From Nitrospiraceae bacterium (GTDB taxonomy: Bacteria > Nitrospirota > Nitrospiria > Nitrospirales > Nitrospiraceae), in NCBI GenBank assembly GCA_051293835.1, contig JBPKMA010000001.1:309952-373951 (forward strand): a stretch of DNA of 64,000 bases, read 5' to 3'. The notes beneath the pieces are model-generated. The model saw only the letters and a list, made by a program, of their open reading frames with translations, was not told the DNA's origin and did no database searches. Of the stretch, positions 30,837-38,485 are shown in pieces. The translations under genes and the position numbers were made by a program. The first letter of the stretch is position 1. Every line of letters begins with the position of its first letter.

Positions 30837-32051
30837 TTGCTGACCGGACTCCACAACGCGATTCTCGCTCATCTCGCCCGGTGGGGACTCCGGCGCTTTG
30901 ACTCCGACGCAGCCTATTTCCAATGGCAACGCGAGTGCCTCAGCCCGGCCGATTTGCGCCTGCTCAACGAGCGCATTGAACAGAAACGGGCGCTCGGCGC
31001 CGGTGCCGAGGAAGAAAAGTCGTTCTACGACCTTACGGCTCGTCCGCATATTATCCCCGTGCTCTACAGTCAGCGGTACGACTACTATGTCGAAATCGGA
31101 CCACGGGTGGCGTCGCGAATCGGCGACGCGCGGTCCGTGTTGGATTTCGGCTGCGGGGTCGGAATCCTGACCACGTTTTACGCCGGGCAGTTTCCCGACC
31201 GCGCGTTTCTAGGGATCGACCGGTCACCGGCCTCCATTCAGATGGCGCGCTGCCAGGCAGCCGCGCTCGGTCTCACCAATGTCCGGTTCGAGTGCGTGGA
31301 CGTTGAGGAGAGTCAGCCGGCCGGCCCGGTCGATCTGATCGTTGCGACCCATGCGTTGGTGCAGGCGGAGCGGGACCCCGGCCTTCCCAGTCAAAGCTGG
31401 CGCACGTTCGAGCGCCCGCGCGATCCTCGGCTCCAGCAGGAGTTTGAACGGAGAACCGGCGTGGGCAGAAGGCTGGATCGGCTCGTCGCCGCGTTGGCTT
31501 CGAACGGGCGGATGATTGTGTTTGAGAAAACCAGAACCTTGGCTCGGCGGATTCCGTTTCAGCGCGCGCTGGCGGCGCGTGGCCTAAGTCTTTTGGAACC
31601 GCCCGAACCGATCCGGTATCGGCTAGTCGAAGAAATCGCCGATGATGGGCCATTTTATGTCTTGGGGCGAGGGCCGTTCTGGGACGCTGGATCGACAGCG
31701 GTCGCCTGGGATGAATTGCCGGAACCGGACGAGGCTCCCGTATTCGATATCACCGGCCGAAGCGGAATCGTGCGGCCGGCAGATGAACCGCTCTACGAAA
31801 ACCATTGGCCGTCGGCTCAGCGGGTCTGGAACCAGCTTCAAGAGCGGCAGATCCTGAAGGAATGCACGACTCAGGAGCCGGACGGGCGTGAGTTCCATGT
31901 CGAGCTGGGACGGGCGGGATCGATAGCATACGTGTACTGTGCCAATACCTTCGATCAGCGGCAGATCGTGATCGTCGAATCTCAACGTGCGGAGCTGGTG
32001 GAAGCCTACTACAACGAAATCGTCGCAGGGATAGGCACCCATCACGTGTGA
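30837..32051 (+). CDS. Class I SAM-dependent methyltransferase with ~200-aa unknown C-terminal domain
   Basis: Motif I VLDFGCGVGILT, then FLGIDRSP and DLIVATHAL. The first possible start is TTG 30837, with no ATG or Shine-Dalgarno. Same reading frame as the ProA-like gene, separated by TGA-ACG. Confidence 0.75.
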   Translation: MLTGLHNAILAHLARWGLRRFDSDAAYFQWQRECLSPADLRLLNERIEQKRALGAGAEEEKSFYDLTARPHIIPVLYSQRYDYYVEIGPRVASRIGDARSVLDFGCGVGILTTFYAGQFPDRAFLGIDRSPASIQMARCQAAALGLTNVRFECVDVEESQPAGPVDLIVATHALVQAERDPGLPSQSWRTFERPRDPRLQQEFERRTGVGRRLDRLVAALASNGRMIVFEKTRTLARRIPFQRALAARGLSLLEPPEPIRYRLVEEIADDGPFYVLGRGPFWDAGSTAVAWDELPEPDEAPVFDITGRSGIVRPADEPLYENHWPSAQRVWNQLQERQILKECTTQEPDGREFHVELGRAGSIAYVYCANTFDQRQIVIVESQRAELVEAYYNEIVAGIGTHHV

Positions 32052-32081: not shown

Positions 32082-32111
32082 TTGACCTGGCAGTTGAACG
32101 GCGCATAGAAT
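32082..32111 (+). promoter_or_regulatory. Sigma70-like promoter ahead of the tandem radical SAM genes
   Basis: TTGACC (32082-32087), 18-nt spacer, TAGAAT (32106-32111), about 80 nt upstream of ATG 32191, which has GAGGAGGA upstream. Confidence 0.45.
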
Positions 32112-32190: not shown

Positions 32191-34077
32191 ATGAGAATCG
32201 AATATTCCAAAGGCCAACGGGCGAGCACGGAACTGATCCAGCTTCACCGGCGCTCGTCGGCCGCGGCTGGCGGACGAAAGATGAAGGTCCTGCTGATTTT
32301 CCCCCCGGACTGGTACCCCTCCGAACCCTATCTGAGCTTGCCCACTCTGACCGCCGTCCTTCGTGCTGCTGGGCACACGGTGATCCAAAAAGATGTGAAC
32401 CTCGAGATGTACGACTGGTATTTCAGCGAGGATTTTCTCAAGCGCGTGCTTCGCAAGGTACCCCAACAGCTCGATCGGCTGAGGAAACTGGCGAAGAGGC
32501 GAGAGTTGGAGGAATGGGAGGTGGACCTCCAGCTTGCGTTGTGCGATTTGACCCGTCAGCGGATCGCCGAGCTGACTGACAAGGCGGAGCGGGCCAAGCG
32601 GATCGTGCGCGGCGAGGATTTTTATGACATCGACAAGCTGGAATGGGCTATCAACACATTTCGGGAAATCACTGCGGCGATCTCGCTGGTCTATGCCCCG
32701 GCGCGGATCTGCATGCCCCCGATGGAGACCGATCTTTCCTATAAGGTTTTCATGTCGTCCGAGGTGATGGATGCGGTGCGCGACACGCAGGTGAACGTCT
32801 ATCGAGATGTGTTTGATCACCTGGTCAAGCCGACCATCGAAGCCGAACGACCCGACGTGGTCGGAGTTTCGATCGTGCTCCAACAGCAGCTTTTCTCGTC
32901 GATGACGTTCTGCGCCCTGATCAAGGAACAGTTTCCGCAGATCCACGTCACGATCGGCGGCAATACGGTGACGCGGCTGCGTGATGTCCTGCCCGGTTCG
33001 CCGCTGTTCGCGTTCTTCGACAGCGCGGTGATCTACGAAGGAGAGACGGCGTTTTTGCAACTGGTCGAGGCGGTGGGTGCCGGACGAGATCTGGGCGGCA
33101 TCCCGAACCTGATCTATCGTGATGCAGCCGGAGTGCACACTTCGCCGCTGACGTATGCGGAAGACTTGGGCTCGCTCCCTCCACCCGATTTCGACGGTCT
33201 GCCGCTGGAGAAGTATTTCGTGCCGGACCGCATTCTGCCGTACCTGGCTACGCGCGGTTGTTACTGGGGCCGCTGCGAGTTCTGCGATCACGGCGAAGGT
33301 TACACCGCCGGCTTTCGGACGAAGAAGATTGAGCAGATCATCGAGGATATTCGGTTCCTCAAAACGAAATATCACACCCGCCATTTCCACTTTACCGACG
33401 AATCCTATCCGCCGGCGCTCTTCCGAAAACTGGCCCGCCGGCTGGTCGAGACCAAGATGGACATCCTCTGGACGACCCACATGCGGTTTGAGAAGAGCTT
33501 ACTTGACGAAGCGGTGTGGCGAGACGCACGGGATTCCGGGTGCCGGTATCTCCACTTTGGCTATGAATCGGGGAGTGAACGGGTGCTCAAATTGATGGAC
33601 AAGGCCACGACGACGGATGTGATCAAGCGGCACTTGGAACTGTCCGCCGGGGTGGGAATCTGGAACCATGTGATGGGGTTCTTCGGATTTCCGGGGGAGA
33701 CGCGGGAGGAGGCCTGGCAGTCGGTTCGATTCCTGGAGGACAACAAGGCGTATGTCCATTCGCTCGGTTTCGGAACCTTCGACTTGAGCAAACACACTCC
33801 TGTCGCGAAGCACCCGGAAAAGTGGGGTGTGACTCCTTACAAGAATCCGGACTGGGACTTGGCGCTGGATTATTATTACACTGTGCGCGAAGGGCTCAGC
33901 GTTGAAGAGGCAGAGCGGGTGTTCGAAGAGTTTGAGCGCAATCATTATCCGGGGTGGGACCTGCGCATCTTCATCCGGGAGTACGTCTTTCTCTATATCG
34001 CCCGGTTTGGGCTGAGCAAACGGCCGGCCCTCCAGTTCAATCCGGATCGCATTCCTGCCGGGACGGCATCGAGTTAG
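32191..34077 (+). CDS. B12-binding-domain radical SAM protein, paralogue 1 (function unknown)
   Basis: 628 aa. Rossmann-like KVLLIFPPDWYPSEPYLSLP...PDVVGVSIV...IHVTIGGN. Cluster loop LPYLATRGCYWGRCEFCDHG. FHFTDESYPP, YLHFGYESGSERVL. Confidence 0.85.
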   Translation: MRIEYSKGQRASTELIQLHRRSSAAAGGRKMKVLLIFPPDWYPSEPYLSLPTLTAVLRAAGHTVIQKDVNLEMYDWYFSEDFLKRVLRKVPQQLDRLRKLAKRRELEEWEVDLQLALCDLTRQRIAELTDKAERAKRIVRGEDFYDIDKLEWAINTFREITAAISLVYAPARICMPPMETDLSYKVFMSSEVMDAVRDTQVNVYRDVFDHLVKPTIEAERPDVVGVSIVLQQQLFSSMTFCALIKEQFPQIHVTIGGNTVTRLRDVLPGSPLFAFFDSAVIYEGETAFLQLVEAVGAGRDLGGIPNLIYRDAAGVHTSPLTYAEDLGSLPPPDFDGLPLEKYFVPDRILPYLATRGCYWGRCEFCDHGEGYTAGFRTKKIEQIIEDIRFLKTKYHTRHFHFTDESYPPALFRKLARRLVETKMDILWTTHMRFEKSLLDEAVWRDARDSGCRYLHFGYESGSERVLKLMDKATTTDVIKRHLELSAGVGIWNHVMGFFGFPGETREEAWQSVRFLEDNKAYVHSLGFGTFDLSKHTPVAKHPEKWGVTPYKNPDWDLALDYYYTVREGLSVEEAERVFEEFERNHYPGWDLRIFIREYVFLYIARFGLSKRPALQFNPDRIPAGTASS

Positions 34078-34087
34078 AGTTAAGGCG

Positions 34088-36040
34088 ATGAGCCATCTGA
34101 TTCAGATCGAAGGAGTGGGCACCCGGCGGAGGAGCGGCCGCAAGCTCAAGACCATGCTTTTGTTCCCGCCGGAGTGGGTGCCGACCGCGCCTTACCTGGC
34201 CTTACCCTGCCTGGCCGCCGTCCTTCGCGAGCACGGGCACGAGGTCATCCAGAAAGACGTCAATATCGAGATGTACAATCACTTCTTCAGCGATATGTTC
34301 CTTATCTGGATTAAAGCCAGGATGGGCATGCAGTTGAAGGAGCTGGAAGCCAAGGAGCAGGCAGGATGGTTGACTGACCAGGAGGCGGATCAGAAGGCCT
34401 GTTTGGAGGCCAAGGCCTCGATCGATGTGTTGGAACTGGCGGAACGGGCCGAGCGGGCGAAGCGCATCGTCCATAGCGAGGAGTTTTACGATGCTGACAA
34501 GTTGGAGTGGGCGCTGAACACGTTCCGCGAGGTGATGCAGTACATTTCTGCTGCGTACTACCCGGCGTCGTTGGTGTTCTACCCGATGGAGAGCAACCTG
34601 GGTTACCGGCCTGGCGTGTCCAAGGAGGTCTTTGCCTGTCTCGACGACGACCAGGTGAATGTCTATCGCGATGTCTGTCGGCAACTGGTCTTGCCGGTCG
34701 TCGGCAGGGAGTTGCCAGAGGTAGTGGGCGTCTCGATCGGGACGCAAATGCAACTGCTGGCTGGTCTGACCATTTGCAAAATGATCAAAGAAGCGTTCCC
34801 GCAAATCCACGTCGTGGTGGGCGGCAACGTCATTACGAGATTACAGGAAGAATTGCCGAAGCATGAGCGGTTTTTCACCGAAGTGTTCGATTCGGCGATT
34901 CTGTATGAGGGCGAGCACGCTTTGCTCTGGCTACTCGAAGCGCTGAGCGGAGAACGGGATCTGGCTTCGGTACCGAACCTCATCTATCGCGACGGGCAGG
35001 GGATTCGGACGAGCCAAGAGATCTATACGGAGCGGATGACGGCCCTGCCCTTGCCAGACTTCGACGGCTTGCCTCTGGACAGCTATTTTGTGCCGGTGCG
35101 CATCCTGCCTTATCTCGCGACCAGAGGCTGCTATTGGGGGCGGTGCACGTTCTGCGATCACGGGCAGGGTTATTTCGACCAATATCGGGGGAGGCCGGCG
35201 CATCTTGTTGTGCAGCAGCTCAAGGCGTTAAAGGACAAATATCGCTGCGAACATTTTCTGTTCTCCGACGAATCCTATCCGCCCGCGCTCTTTAAGAAGG
35301 TCACGCAACTACTGGTTGAGCAGAACGTCGGCATCAAGTGGACGACGCTGATCCGTTTCGAGGAAACGCTGCAGGACCCGGAGATCTGGAAGCTGGCCGC
35401 AAAATCCGGATGCTGCACGCTCTATTACGGGATGGAATCGGCTAACGAGCGCGTGCTGAACTTGATGGACAAGCACGTCAAAAAGAGCGTCATCGCGCAC
35501 AATCTGAAAGAAGCAGCCAAGGCGGGTATCTGGAACCACGTGATGGCTTTTTATGGGTTTCCCGGCGAGACCCGCGAGGAGGCGCTGGAGACCAGGCAGT
35601 TTATTCTCGACAACCAGCCGTACATTCATTCGGTCGAGCTCTTCTATTTTGTTGCCTATCGCCATACGCCGGTGGTCAGGAACCCAGAGAAATTCGGCAT
35701 CACCATTCACAAACAGGAGGAGTACGACCTTCCGCTGGATTACTATTACACCTTGAACGAGCCGGGTGGACTTTCCTGCCTCGATGCGATGCAGCTCTGC
35801 GAGGAGTTTTATCGAAATGATTTCCAGCCCTGGGCTGTTCGGGTGAACGCCCGCGAGCACGTCTTTCTTTATATCTCCAAGTATGGCACCAACCGGTTGC
35901 CGCAGATCTACGCGCAGCGAAAAGAGGGCGCCGCGGACAGCGTCTCCGGGCTGGTAACCTGGCCGGTTGCATTGGGCGAGGGCGAAGGGAAGGCCGGCGA
36001 ACCATCGATGACCCGGGTGGTTAGCCACGCGGTGTCATGA
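34088..36040 (+). CDS. B12-binding-domain radical SAM protein, paralogue 2 (function unknown)
   Basis: 650 aa, collinear with paralogue 1 (about half the positions identical by eye). LPYLATRGCYWGRCTFCDHG, FLFSDESYPP, LYYGMESANERVL. Confidence 0.85.
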   Translation: MSHLIQIEGVGTRRRSGRKLKTMLLFPPEWVPTAPYLALPCLAAVLREHGHEVIQKDVNIEMYNHFFSDMFLIWIKARMGMQLKELEAKEQAGWLTDQEADQKACLEAKASIDVLELAERAERAKRIVHSEEFYDADKLEWALNTFREVMQYISAAYYPASLVFYPMESNLGYRPGVSKEVFACLDDDQVNVYRDVCRQLVLPVVGRELPEVVGVSIGTQMQLLAGLTICKMIKEAFPQIHVVVGGNVITRLQEELPKHERFFTEVFDSAILYEGEHALLWLLEALSGERDLASVPNLIYRDGQGIRTSQEIYTERMTALPLPDFDGLPLDSYFVPVRILPYLATRGCYWGRCTFCDHGQGYFDQYRGRPAHLVVQQLKALKDKYRCEHFLFSDESYPPALFKKVTQLLVEQNVGIKWTTLIRFEETLQDPEIWKLAAKSGCCTLYYGMESANERVLNLMDKHVKKSVIAHNLKEAAKAGIWNHVMAFYGFPGETREEALETRQFILDNQPYIHSVELFYFVAYRHTPVVRNPEKFGITIHKQEEYDLPLDYYYTLNEPGGLSCLDAMQLCEEFYRNDFQPWAVRVNAREHVFLYISKYGTNRLPQIYAQRKEGAADSVSGLVTWPVALGEGEGKAGEPSMTRVVSHAVS

Positions 36041-36062
36041 GCAAGGAGCCGATAGCAAATAG

Positions 36063-36083
36063 CTGGCAACGAATGATTGCCAG
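36063..36083. terminator. Short hairpin between convergent genes (possible bidirectional terminator element)
   Basis: CTGGCAA-cgaatga-TTGCCAG (7-bp stem, 7-nt loop) between the radical SAM paralogue 2 stop and the J-like gene stop. No clear U-tract. Confidence 0.3.
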
Positions 36084-36146
36084 TGGAAGGCAACCAGGGA
36101 AACTGATTCTCGTTGGGCTCGGCACTCCGTTACGCGCTTTCCGCGG

Positions 36147-36386
36147 TCAGCGTTGGGATGACAGCCAATTGCTCAGCAGTTGGTAGGCTGCCTCGATCTG
36201 TTTTGTCATTGTTTCGGCTTTTTTGTACATCTGCATATACTTGCGCGGATTGTTGGTCAGGTTGGCATACCGATGGGGATGCCAGAGGTGCAGCAGTTCC
36301 TGGTATCTCCGATCGAGCAGCTCGCGCGTGACCGGCAACGAGAGATCGAACATTTCCAACGCGCGATCGAGGTCCGATTGCTCCAT
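36147..36386 (-). CDS. Small J-domain-like protein with HPH in place of HPD
   Basis: 79 aa. ALEMFDLSLPVTRELLDRRYQELLHLWHPHRYANL...IEAAYQLLSN follows the helix II - loop - helix III pattern of J domains, but the loop tripeptide is HPH. Confidence 0.6.
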   Translation of the reverse strand: MEQSDLDRALEMFDLSLPVTRELLDRRYQELLHLWHPHRYANLTNNPRKYMQMYKKAETMTKQIEAAYQLLSNWLSSQR

Positions 36387-36469
36387 GGCGTGACGGATTC
36401 AAGCGTCTGGCGGCCGTCGTCGCGCCGCCCGTCGGTGAGTGTGACAAAGAGCCGGAAACTCTGTCAATC

Positions 36470-37714
36470 ATGCGTCTAACCGCTCCGCTGCCCATCCTGC
36501 AGGCCCCGCCGGTCCTCAAGAGCAAGGACTACCGAGAGATCCTGAAGCGGGAAATGGACGGGGGGAAAATCCCGCTCAGCCTCGGCAAGAGCTGTCCTGT
36601 CAAGTGTGAATTTTGCTACGAGATCGATCACTCGTATCGAGAGACAGCCGACCCGCCGCGAACGACTCAAGAGGACTGGGAGTTCATTCTCGACTACATC
36701 AACAAGAAGCCGACCGATCCCCAGCAATTCTGGTGTCTAGGTGGGAACGAATACATGGAATGGACGGATCTGTTCCTGCATCCCAAGGCCATGGAATGGC
36801 TGGAGGATTTTCTGAAGTACACCGACAAAAACGTCACGTTCTTCACCGTTGGATTCGTGCATGTGCCGAAGATCCACCAGTTGGCCGCGCAGTATCCCGG
36901 ACGGATCAATTTTGAATTGTCGGTCATCACGCTGAGCGGCTATCGGGAACGGCTCATGCCGCACGCTCCATCGGTGAAGCACCTGATGAAGGTTCTGGAT
37001 GGGCCGGCCGTCTCTTCAGCCAATTTTTATGCGTTCGACGACTATACGATGTCCAAGGATGCCGTCACGATCTCCGGCGTCAACCAGAAGTGCGTGTTGT
37101 GGATGGGGTGTCTGACGCCGGTGCGGGGGCTTAAGGAAGAGACGGTCGCACTGATGCGGCAAGGGCGGAAATATCTGCCGCGCGAGGCCGAGCGCGTCTA
37201 CGATGCGGGCTTGCCGAATCTGCAGACCATCCACACGGAAGCTCCGATCACGGCTTTTCTGAACCGTCGTCGGATCGTGAGCCTGTTCGATTCGCTGGAG
37301 TTGGAAAAGCATGATACGGTGGTGATGGCCAAGAGCGTTTACAAGATCCTCACAATGTACCGAAAGAATCGAGCCCGATTCCTTATGGTGCCCAATGCGA
37401 CCTTGGGTGGAGACTCAGACTGCACGATCCTGCTGACGTTCGACGACATTGCTAGACGGTTGAGCGGTCAGAAGATGATCCATGTCCCCAAGTGCATGAT
37501 GCAGTCAGGACGCGGGCCGTATACGGACATTGCCGGCGTGACGCTCGACCAGTTCATCAAGAAGACCGGTGTGAAGGTCAGGGTGTTGCATCGGATTGAT
37601 ACCAGATTCGCCAACAAACTGCTGTACCGCAACGGCCACCTGCGCAACTACGTCGAGGACTACCTCCGCAATCCCCTCACTCAGTCATACGAAGCTCTGC
37701 CCATTTCCGCTTAG
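36470..37714 (+). CDS. Radical SAM protein, DUF512-like C-terminal part (function unknown)
   Basis: 414 aa with the canonical SCPVKCEFCYE (CX3CX2C) near the N-terminus. C-terminal VPNATLGGDSDCTILLTFDDIARRL resembles the DUF512 motif N..FG....V.GLLTG.D as I remember it. Confidence 0.75.
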   Translation: MRLTAPLPILQAPPVLKSKDYREILKREMDGGKIPLSLGKSCPVKCEFCYEIDHSYRETADPPRTTQEDWEFILDYINKKPTDPQQFWCLGGNEYMEWTDLFLHPKAMEWLEDFLKYTDKNVTFFTVGFVHVPKIHQLAAQYPGRINFELSVITLSGYRERLMPHAPSVKHLMKVLDGPAVSSANFYAFDDYTMSKDAVTISGVNQKCVLWMGCLTPVRGLKEETVALMRQGRKYLPREAERVYDAGLPNLQTIHTEAPITAFLNRRRIVSLFDSLELEKHDTVVMAKSVYKILTMYRKNRARFLMVPNATLGGDSDCTILLTFDDIARRLSGQKMIHVPKCMMQSGRGPYTDIAGVTLDQFIKKTGVKVRVLHRIDTRFANKLLYRNGHLRNYVEDYLRNPLTQSYEALPISA

Positions 37715-37804: not shown

Positions 37805-38485
37805 CTATTTTGCGGTGAGGACCGGGTCGAGATTGAAGGCCACACTGATGCGCGGAGCCGTGCCCGTGTAGGTGGTCACGGCATGGAAGAGCCACCCGGG
37901 GAACATCACACACTGGCCGGCCGTGGGGGAAAACGAAATATTGCGCCCGGCATCGTGCAGTTCGGGCATGGCATAGCGGAGATAGGGGGCAAGCATCCTG
38001 GGCAAGCAGCCCCGCGGATCAAAGAGCTGCAACTCGCCGCCGCATTTGCTATCGGGCGAGATGTCGCCGACATCCACATAATACACGCCAGACCAAAAGC
38101 TGCCGGGATGCGGATGGGCGGCATTGCTGCCCCCCTTGCGCTGCACGTTGGACCAGACTTCGACGACCTGCCAGCCGGGACGCCGTCCGGCCGTCCCCGG
38201 CGCCCGTTCGGAGAACTCTGTCACCTGCGTGGCCACCTCAATGACGGGTTCGAACAACCGCTTCAAAGGCTCGCCAGCCCAATCCAGCATGGAGAGATCG
38301 TGTGGAGAGGACCAGCCAACGACCTCGTAGTCCGAATAAGCGGGCGTGGAAGCTTCGCGCTCGAGAATCGCACGACGCAACTGAGCATTGATCTGTTCGT
38401 GGTCCGGAACTGTGAAGACGAGAAGGGGGGTCGAGAAAATCGGGCGGACGTTAATTTCCATTTCCCGTGCCATGGAAGCCAACAT
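37805..38485 (-). CDS. 2OG-Fe(II)-oxygenase-like protein (TIGR02466 / 2OG-FeII_Oxy_5 type)
   Basis: 226 aa. PIFSTPLLVF..., NAAHPHPGSFWSGVYYV, VMFPGWLFHAV...RISVAFNL match the family pattern. The start may be an internal ATG (MEINV, 38461). Confidence 0.7.
   Translation of the reverse strand: MLASMAREMEINVRPIFSTPLLVFTVPDHEQINAQLRRAILEREASTPAYSDYEVVGWSSPHDLSMLDWAGEPLKRLFEPVIEVATQVTEFSERAPGTAGRRPGWQVVEVWSNVQRKGGSNAAHPHPGSFWSGVYYVDVGDISPDSKCGGELQLFDPRGCLPRMLAPYLRYAMPELHDAGRNISFSPTAGQCVMFPGWLFHAVTTYTGTAPRISVAFNLDPVLTAK

Follow-up and report, generated by a model that had tools for sequence, protein, structure and literature searches.

A conserved tandem pair of predicted cobalamin-dependent radical SAM paralogues with a helical insert in the B12-binding domain of Nitrospira

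The tandem pair and its conservation

The 64,000-nucleotide stretch of Nitrospiraceae bacterium DNA analyzed here (contig JBPKMA010000001.1, positions 309,952 to 373,951; hereafter the window) carries two adjacent open reading frames (ORFs) on the same strand, ORF A (32191–34077, +, 628 aa) and ORF B (34088–36040, +, 650 aa), separated by a gap of 10 nt. As judged from family profiles and structure prediction, A and B are class-B, i.e., cobalamin (B12)-dependent, radical S-adenosylmethionine (SAM) paralogues: each has a radical SAM core with a three-Cys motif and a B12-binding Rossmann domain N-terminal to that core. B has the same architecture as A; BLASTP aligns the two over 606 aa, with 4 gap positions and 51% identity. 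We propose, with about even confidence, that the two enzymes use B12 to methylate unactivated carbon atoms at two sites of a single conserved substrate, which is probably a peptide or protein. A preliminary description of this region had reported tandem 628/650-aa genes with a 10-nt gap and about half of their positions identical, and had taken them for paralogous B12-domain radical SAM enzymes. Coordinates, gap, and identity all agree with it, and both Pfam domains score above cutoff in both proteins. PF04055 matches residues 353–515 of A with 59.3 bits and residues 344–506 of B with 59.6 bits (cutoff 29.5), and PF02310 matches A with 36.7 bits (residues 205–291; only profile positions 40–120) and B with 33.9 bits (cutoff 32.1).

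The B12-binding domain is predicted to be split. Its first part in A, residues 31–68 (32281–32394, +), comprises strand 1, helix 1, and strand 2; it has an FPP...P..LP motif and lacks DxHxxG, and no other segment of the family is as well conserved (mean column conservation 0.63). It is followed by a helical-bundle insert (residues 69–203; 32395–32799, +), to which residues 59–193 of B (34262–34666, +) are equivalent in the collinear alignment, and then by the remainder of the domain (residues 204–300; 32800–33090, +) with the S227 and G256-G257 motifs. In an AlphaFold2 (AF2) model of A, built on an 88-sequence family alignment and obtained with a predicted local distance difference test (pLDDT) score of 94 and a predicted template-modeling (pTM) score of 0.92, residues 32–37 form a strand, 49–59 a helix, and 63–68 a strand; residues 69–167 and 189–197 form a run of helices; and a helix at 204–219 and a strand at 223–227 lead into the rest of the five-stranded Rossmann pattern. 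When residues 70–203 were removed from A in silico, the PF02310 score rose from 36.7 to 41.6 bits and the match widened from profile positions 40–120 to 16–120; removal of residues 60–193 from B raised the score from 33.9 to 42.1 bits and widened the match to profile positions 15–117. Since the deletion widens the match, the N-terminal strand–helix–strand unit is assigned to the B12-binding domain, and the model and the deletion together place an insert of about 135 aa between strand 2 and helix 2 of the Rossmann domain. The preliminary description had likewise proposed a helical insert splitting this domain, at a size of about 150 aa; the split is borne out by the AF2 model and the deletion test, and the size is corrected to about 135 aa. 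Across the 88 family sequences, G225, G256, and G257 are invariant and S227 is nearly so.

Modeled in isolation, the insert is an all-helical bundle (AF2, pLDDT 91). A comparison of the isolated insert with PDB folds returned only generic helical bundles and no OxsB chain (best E about 1, TM-score below 0.33), and a search against Pfam gave nothing at E ≤ 1 except one chance-level match. Its conservation (0.35) is lower than that of the rest of the protein (0.49–0.63), and the positions conserved family-wide are N70, E72, A135, K136, R140, F144, S165, P170, and N202. The first impression of a charged, helix-rich insert was correct, with 35% of its residues charged. It contains no transmembrane-like segment, and the maximum 19-residue Kyte–Doolittle hydropathy (KD19) of 1.4–1.5 falls in the Rossmann core. 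A membrane-facing bundle, which had been suggested as one outcome of structure prediction, is unlikely because the insert is charged, soluble-looking, and devoid of any membrane-like segment.

The radical SAM core of A (residues 346–520; 33226–33750, +) was delimited by PF04055 and by alignment to OxsB's radical SAM domain. Its loop CYWGRCEFC (A357–365; 33259–33285, +) has CX4CX2C spacing, with C357, C362, and C365 as the predicted [4Fe-4S] ligands; the corresponding loop of B is CYWGRCTFC (B348–356; 35129–35155, +), with C348, C353, and C356. C357, C362, and C365 are invariant in the family alignment, and each protein has this one Cys triad and no further (auxiliary) Cys cluster. The canonical CX3CX2C spacing was searched for in A and B and found in neither, which rules out an alternative canonical triad as the true cluster loop. 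Such a triad had been named beforehand as a finding that would overturn the original assignment of 4+2 spacing to both proteins; the sole conserved triad is indeed CX4CX2C. The other two radical SAM proteins of the window have the canonical 3+2 spacing, as was first noted: CPVKCEFC in a 414-aa protein encoded downstream of B and CRSRCHFC in HemW. D403-E404 of A aligns with the “GGE-type” motif of OxsB, and E285, G450, G457, P501, and E503 are invariant. Because the Cys triad, these five residues, and the three Rossmann glycines do not vary, both copies look catalytically intact.

Two further segments flank the conserved domains. Residues 521–615 of A (33751–34035, +) form a C-terminal domain of about 95 residues, the presumed substrate-binding cap. 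Residues 1–30 (32191–32280, +) are an N-terminal extension predicted with low confidence to be helical (pLDDT 44–65), in which M1, L15, I16, G28, R29, and K30 are invariant in an alignment of A, B, and three A orthologues. Distant relatives begin at the equivalent of M31 of A, and by this comparison the first 30 residues are peculiar to the A/B clade.

Databases contain more than 2,800 relatives of A, the top 120 of which are Nitrospiraceae proteins with 80–100% identity. Scanning species-representative genomes gave 284 relatives, and the loci of the best 80 were analyzed; all 80 are Nitrospirota, mostly labeled Nitrospira or Nitrospiraceae (two without a taxon), and they include N. moscoviensis. 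Sixty-five of these loci extend far enough for both genes to be judged, the other 15 stopping at a contig edge. A and B are both present, with B immediately after A, in 65/65 judgeable loci, which answers the initial question about conservation of the pair across Nitrospirota. The loop reads RGCYWGRCEFC in every one of the 65 A orthologues and RGCYWGRCTFC in every one of the 65 B orthologues. Because the pair and both motifs recur unchanged in all 65 loci, a chance occurrence is excluded. Across Nitrospira, A, B, and the downstream 414-aa protein are 77–83% conserved, compared with 43–75% for the neighboring genes.

Exact look-ups identified Nitrospinota and Nitrospina as the sources of the nearest relatives of A and B that lack a recognition element (RRE) for RiPPs (ribosomally synthesized peptides that are modified post-translationally). 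In a neighbor-joining tree without support values, the A and B clades are sisters, each accompanied by its own non-Nitrospira sister: two Nitrospina sp. proteins (L100 and L102, 54% identical to B) stand beside B, and two proteins with no organism assigned (L089_2 and L099_2, 60–62% identical to A) stand beside A. Given these separate sisters, the duplication would be old, predating the spread of the pair, and both copies would have been retained since. Members of the A/B clade, as delineated by this tree, were found in Nitrospira, and B-like ones also in Nitrospina. In the C-terminal domain (521–615), 26% of the positions show fixed A-versus-B differences, versus 2–14% in the other aligned segments of A and B. 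Among Nitrospinota, at least three further RRE-less paralogue groups were observed (L113, L102, L100, L104, L106, and L150, several of them Nitrospinota contigs). In six loci, a gene for a 4Fe-4S ferredoxin-like protein lies a few genes away from a family member; such proteins may serve as electron donors, or their co-occurrence may simply stem from a common domain.

The wider family and the proposed reaction

A family profile searched against 1.84 billion 50%-identity cluster representatives retrieved 3,544 representatives with E ≤ 1e-30. Among the best 150, the majority align in a single stretch from profile position 31 to about 610, which starts at the MKVLLIFPP strand, crosses the insert, and reaches the C-terminal domain, and nearly all full-length members among them contain CYWxxCxFC. 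A and B share all of these features, namely the FPP...P..LP strand, the helical insert after strand 2, the GC(Y)Wxx C x(F)C loop, and the end-to-end alignment. Since the split Rossmann domain and the CX4CX2C loop occur in essentially all full-length relatives among these 150, both are family traits and are not special to the pair; whether they extend through the family had been posed as a check at the outset. A structured helical bundle inside the B12-binding Rossmann fold would be an undescribed arrangement for class-B radical SAM enzymes, and it appears to be common to more than 100 of the 50%-identity clusters, none of which is characterized.

No curated family model reaches its cutoff with A or B. 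The best-scoring models are TIGR03975, which we take to represent PoyB/PoyC-type RiPP C-methyltransferases (A 126.4 and B 118.4 bits versus a cutoff of 281.85; partial, from profile position 120–124), PhpK (TIGR04479; 111.4 and 151.0 bits versus 600; partial, from profile position 90), and ApyD (NF050148), the third-best match for both proteins, which starts at profile position 51–71 and does not approach its cutoff of 750 bits. Scores were lower for BchE (TIGR02026; A 62.9 and B 71.9 bits versus 481.35), HpnJ (TIGR03471; 74.5 and 65.0 versus 577.6), HpnR (TIGR04367; 51.5 and 53.9 versus 650), and MgmA (TIGR04014; 55 and 52 bits versus 360). Membership in any of these families, or in the ladderane-lipid radical SAM family, was rejected, as all matches are far below cutoff. 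The opening remark that the pair could not be placed in any characterized class-B family therefore stands, and the high-coverage match to a characterized family that had been set as a possible refutation was not found. The same pattern holds for the relatives: none of 70 diverse representatives reaches any NCBIfam cutoff, and all 70 match TIGR03975, PhpK, and ApyD below threshold (best TIGR03975 E 3e-49). The names “BchE”, an over-annotation given to many homologues by JGI, and “YgiQ”/UPF0313, another JGI name for homologues, are not supported; for YgiQ-type family models, A and B have no Pfam or NCBIfam match at E ≤ 0.01.

Most of the 120 best profile matches carry PF05402 (PqqD), several are named “PqqD family peptide modification chaperone”, and the domain was matched in 18 of the 70 representatives. 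This RiPP-recognition domain is C-terminal in many members with a length of about 710–720 aa, chiefly from Ca. Methanoperedens, Dehalococcoidia, and Aminicenantes; A and B end about where the extension of about 100 aa in these members starts. In Ca. Methanoperedens contigs (L169 8001–10172, L170 2272–4443, L171 7001–9172, L172 1199–3370, and L173 7001–9166), a PqqD-fused member (P0450, P0467, or P0437) directly follows mcrBDGA, an 85-aa zinc-ribbon gene, and an MJ0093-like gene; the three proteins are about 72% identical to each other and represent three diverged lineages whose further flanks differ. On the Dehalogenimonas sp. WBC-2 chromosome, a PqqD-fused member (L167 7849–10236) is flanked by called ORFs of 46 and 41 aa and sits within an array of reductive dehalogenase genes. 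P0243 (1411 aa; L085 4389–8624 and L086 2034–6269) is a naturally fused protein made up of two modules of the family, each containing a CYWGRCxFC loop of its own, and adjoins a 365-aa radical SAM–SPASM enzyme and a 69-aa ORF, an arrangement that resembles a RiPP cluster. Four giant proteins of 1,500–2,331 aa (P0250, P0256, P0280, and P0360), in which the profile matched 5–7 stretches and several CX3CX2C motifs occur, look like multi-module class-B radical SAM enzymes.

By analogy with the nearest families, the [4Fe-4S] cluster of A and B would reductively cleave SAM to give a 5'-deoxyadenosyl radical, which would abstract hydrogen from an unactivated carbon of the substrate; the substrate radical would then take up the methyl group of methylcobalamin, and a second SAM would re-methylate cob(I)alamin. 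We lean toward methyl transfer because TIGR03975, PhpK, and ApyD are the top partial NCBIfam matches for the pair and for all 70 relatives. The two proteins would share one substrate and work on it either at two positions or in consecutive steps, because the active-site scaffolds are conserved while the fixed A/B differences are concentrated in the presumably substrate-binding C-terminal domain. In TsrM and TokK, the C-terminal domain binds the substrate (PMC9204698); combined with the distribution of the A/B differences, this supports two specificities on one conserved scaffold. The weakest step concerns the nature of the substrate, most likely a peptide or protein, since the wider family is dominated by PqqD-fused enzymes and includes the mcr-linked clade; the PqqD fusions, together with the P0243 fusion and the Dehalogenimonas and Methanoperedens contexts, tilt the family toward such substrates. 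In Nitrospira, a conserved cellular component would be a more probable target than a variable natural product, since the pair is universal, about 80% conserved across the genus, and has orthologues in Nitrospina.

The same enzymology could also serve a small molecule, lipid, or cofactor (a membrane lipid, a quinone, or a tetrapyrrole) methylated at two positions in the manner of GenK/GenD1, a possible but somewhat doubtful alternative. It would suit two core, highly conserved genes in housekeeping contexts whose products lack an RRE/PqqD domain and have no precursor-like ORF conserved nearby. The CX4CX2C loop is shared with the small-molecule enzymes OxsB, GenK, and GenD1; PhpK, the top match for B, acts on a small molecule; and the lipid and cofactor enzymes HpnJ, ladderane-lipid radical SAM, BzaD, and BchE appear as weaker matches (E 1e-17 to 1e-21). 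Yet RiPP enzymes make up the best-scoring families for A and for the 70 relatives, a peptide-recognition domain is widespread in the larger family, and no lipid or cofactor pathway genes are consistently linked to the pair.

It is unlikely that the pair performs a cobalamin/SAM radical reaction other than methylation, such as a rearrangement or ring contraction (OxsB), a cyclization (BchE), or a dehydration (AprD4). OxsB is the best PDB match by sequence and by query-normalized TM-score (0.56) and has both a CX4CX2C loop and an extra N-terminal module, and AprD4 and BchE also score. However, the similarity to OxsB is limited to the common B12/radical SAM core (A residues 208–523), its N-terminal domain has no sequence match to the insert, and the methyltransferase families score 30–80 bits above BchE or AprD4. 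A RiPP natural-product pathway of secondary metabolism, with the precursor peptide and the recognition protein encoded elsewhere, would agree with the affiliation of the family with RiPP C-methyltransferases and PqqD fusions and with the RiPP-like clusters of distant members, but it is improbable: the pair is present throughout Nitrospira, in synteny and at about 80% conservation, and a second phylum has orthologues, which is atypical for RiPP clusters, and no precursor, protease, or transporter genes lie in the neighborhood.

Several observations weigh against methylation of a peptide or protein by A and B. Every NCBIfam match is far below its cutoff, so that the proposed chemistry draws on sub-threshold family similarity, and the solved structure nearest in sequence is that of OxsB, an enzyme other than a methyltransferase (PMC9204698). 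PF05402 (PqqD) was not detected in A or B at E ≤ 0.01, and no conserved small plus-strand ORF lies between or beside the two genes. In both Nitrospira and Nitrospina, the gene contexts are housekeeping and give no clue to the substrate. For distant relatives, 336 neighboring ORFs from 74 loci were clustered, and none occurs in more than six loci; the only recurrent neighbors are ferredoxin-like proteins and MoaA-like or SPASM radical SAM proteins. Finally, the proposed placement of strands 1 and 2 in the Rossmann sheet has only the order of the secondary-structure elements and the deletion test as its basis.

Nitrospira and Nitrospina do most nitrite oxidation on land and in the sea. The universal presence of the pair in Nitrospira, conserved like core metabolism, would imply an unrecognized cobalamin-requiring modification of a conserved cellular component, and naming that component would tie vitamin B12 supply to nitrifier physiology. 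Although uncharacterized class-B families are numerous, the A/B clade stands out by its apparent restriction to nitrite oxidizers and by its mcr-linked relative.

Transcription unit and gene neighborhood

A sigma-70-type promoter (TTGACC, 18 nt, TAGAAT; 32082–32111, +) with 10 of 12 consensus positions lies upstream of A. Its score alone is unremarkable, as a 10-kb region holds 5 such sites versus 3.0 ± 1.8 expected. However, in 12 Nitrospira upstream regions with a mean column identity of 45%, only the −35 CTTG, the −10 TA.AAT, and the ATG stand out as invariant blocks, in support of the promoter originally predicted at this position. Downstream of B, a convergent gene for a 79-aa J-domain-like protein (36147–36386, −) marks the boundary of the A–B unit. 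This gene is conserved in 60 of the 80 Nitrospira loci with 45–95% identity, far better than the overlapping frames, and, judged by this conservation, the minus-strand ORF is clearly the real frame of the “intergenic” region. Its product has a weak match to PF00226 (DnaJ) at E 7.8e-4, below the cutoff, with HPH in place of HPD. Because a conserved promoter of its own lies upstream and a conserved convergent gene downstream, A–B is predicted to be its own bicistronic transcription unit, as had been thought probable. An Rfam scan of the window found only a tRNA-Leu and no riboswitch or other RNA element near the pair.

The genes around the pair encode ProA, a class-I methyltransferase, the J-like protein, a radical-SAM-like protein, a 2-oxoglutarate (2OG)-Fe(II) oxygenase, a PhzF isomerase, and a quinone-oxidoreductase-like dehydrogenase; none of these suggests a substrate, in line with the first description. 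The wider window contains HemW, a Ca2+/H+ exchanger, flavin adenine dinucleotide (FAD) oxidoreductases, and Mla transport genes, all housekeeping, and no nxr or other obvious substrate gene. As for a precursor peptide beside the pair, the small plus-strand ORFs in 36037–36479 either are not conserved beyond near-identical genomes or match less well than the minus-strand frame, and the only conserved small gene beside the pair is the J-like ORF.

The orphan 414-aa radical-SAM-like protein (36470–37714, +; CX3CX2C) is a possible partner. Its gene comes after B in about two thirds of Nitrospira loci, and it has 766 database relatives, of which almost all of those listed are Nitrospira. A 56% identical homologue, which reaches PF04055, is encoded in a Nitrospinota contig (L113 15170–16372), 3.4 kb downstream of a more distant family member. 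The protein itself has no NCBIfam match and no credible PDB match (only one at E 0.54), and its sole Pfam match is a sub-threshold one to DUF512. In L095, a locus without the gene, a short similar stretch (E 1.7e-10) may be a remnant of it. The role of obligate partner was rejected, as the gene is absent from about one third of Nitrospira loci and is separated from B by the convergent gene; the protein is at most accessory.

Two other neighbors were noted. Just upstream of the A–B promoter and after proA, a 404-aa class-I SAM methyltransferase (30837–32051, +) with a long uncharacterized C-terminal half occupies the same position in about a third of Nitrospira loci and is only 43–64% conserved in most. 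A TIGR02466-family 2OG-Fe(II) oxygenase (37805–38485, −), located between the 414-aa radical SAM gene and the PhzF gene, is found in 7 of 37 Nitrospira loci, and the genes on either side recur in most.

Comparison with known systems

Searches against solved structures support the class-B assignment. Foldseek with the A model gave TsrM, OxsB, AprD4, MgmA, and CysS at E 1e-13 to 4e-19, and the family profile matched OxsB (2.7e-21), MgmA (7e-20), TsrM, CysS, and TokK in the PDB. OxsB (PDB 5UL2–5UL4), which A alone matches at E 1e-4, superimposes over about 636 columns with an RMSD of 5 Å and an identity of 14–15% at its TM-score, which TsrM equals (0.56). Like A and B, OxsB combines the CX4CX2C loop and the D-E “GGE-type” motif with an extra module besides the B12-binding and radical SAM domains. 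However, the sequence and profile matches cover only OxsB residues 166–501, the common core. Its extra domain is N-terminal to the B12-binding domain (PMC9204698) and the family profile matches OxsB only from helix 2, whereas the module of A and B comes after strand 2. OxsB is also longer (744 aa) and has a C-terminal helix bundle, and the reaction it catalyzes is a ring contraction on a nucleoside, not methylation. The CX4CX2C spacing is not a novelty, having been documented in OxsB (PMC9204698) as well as in GenK, GenD1, and Sis14 (PMC4340712).

Among the curated families, the TIGR03975 enzymes are also B12-dependent, about 600 aa long, and have extra residues before strand 3, but their N-terminal region is not common with that of A and B, and no NHLP/Nif11-type precursor was found near the pair. 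PhpK and ApyD are class-B methyltransferases; no phosphinate or Apy pathway genes were found near A and B. GenK and GenD1 offer a functional parallel for two enzymes that divide their labor: both are cobalamin-dependent Cx4Cx2C enzymes, and as two paralogues they methylate different steps of one pathway (PMC4340712). Their substrate, however, is an aminoglycoside, and they are part of an antibiotic gene cluster. A search of one literature collection found no paper linking Nitrospira to the radical SAM family of A and B.

A further parallel comes from methyl-coenzyme M reductase (MCR). Mmp10 and MgmA/QCMT (PDB 9CCB) also belong to the B12-dependent radical SAM enzymes, and they C-methylate a residue within a core enzyme of catabolism. 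MgmA ranks second among the PDB matches of the family profile; it differs from A and B in its length of 450 aa and in having no insert. In the anaerobic methanotrophic archaea of clade 2d (ANME-2d), gamma-His159 of MCR is modified to 3(S)-methylhistidine, for which no methylase is known (PMC12413448). The mcr-linked, PqqD-fused member of Ca. Methanoperedens is a concrete candidate for this histidine methylase. By the same analogy, and as a long shot, A and B might modify a core enzyme common to Nitrospira and Nitrospina, by carbon methylation or another radical reaction; candidates would be the nitrite oxidoreductase of the periplasm and, from the reductive tricarboxylic acid cycle, an oxygen-sensitive enzyme. 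If so, the enzymes that drive global nitrite oxidation would carry a hidden layer of B12-dependent post-translational modification, just as Mmp10 and MgmA decorate MCR and as the mcr-linked relative may do in Methanoperedens.

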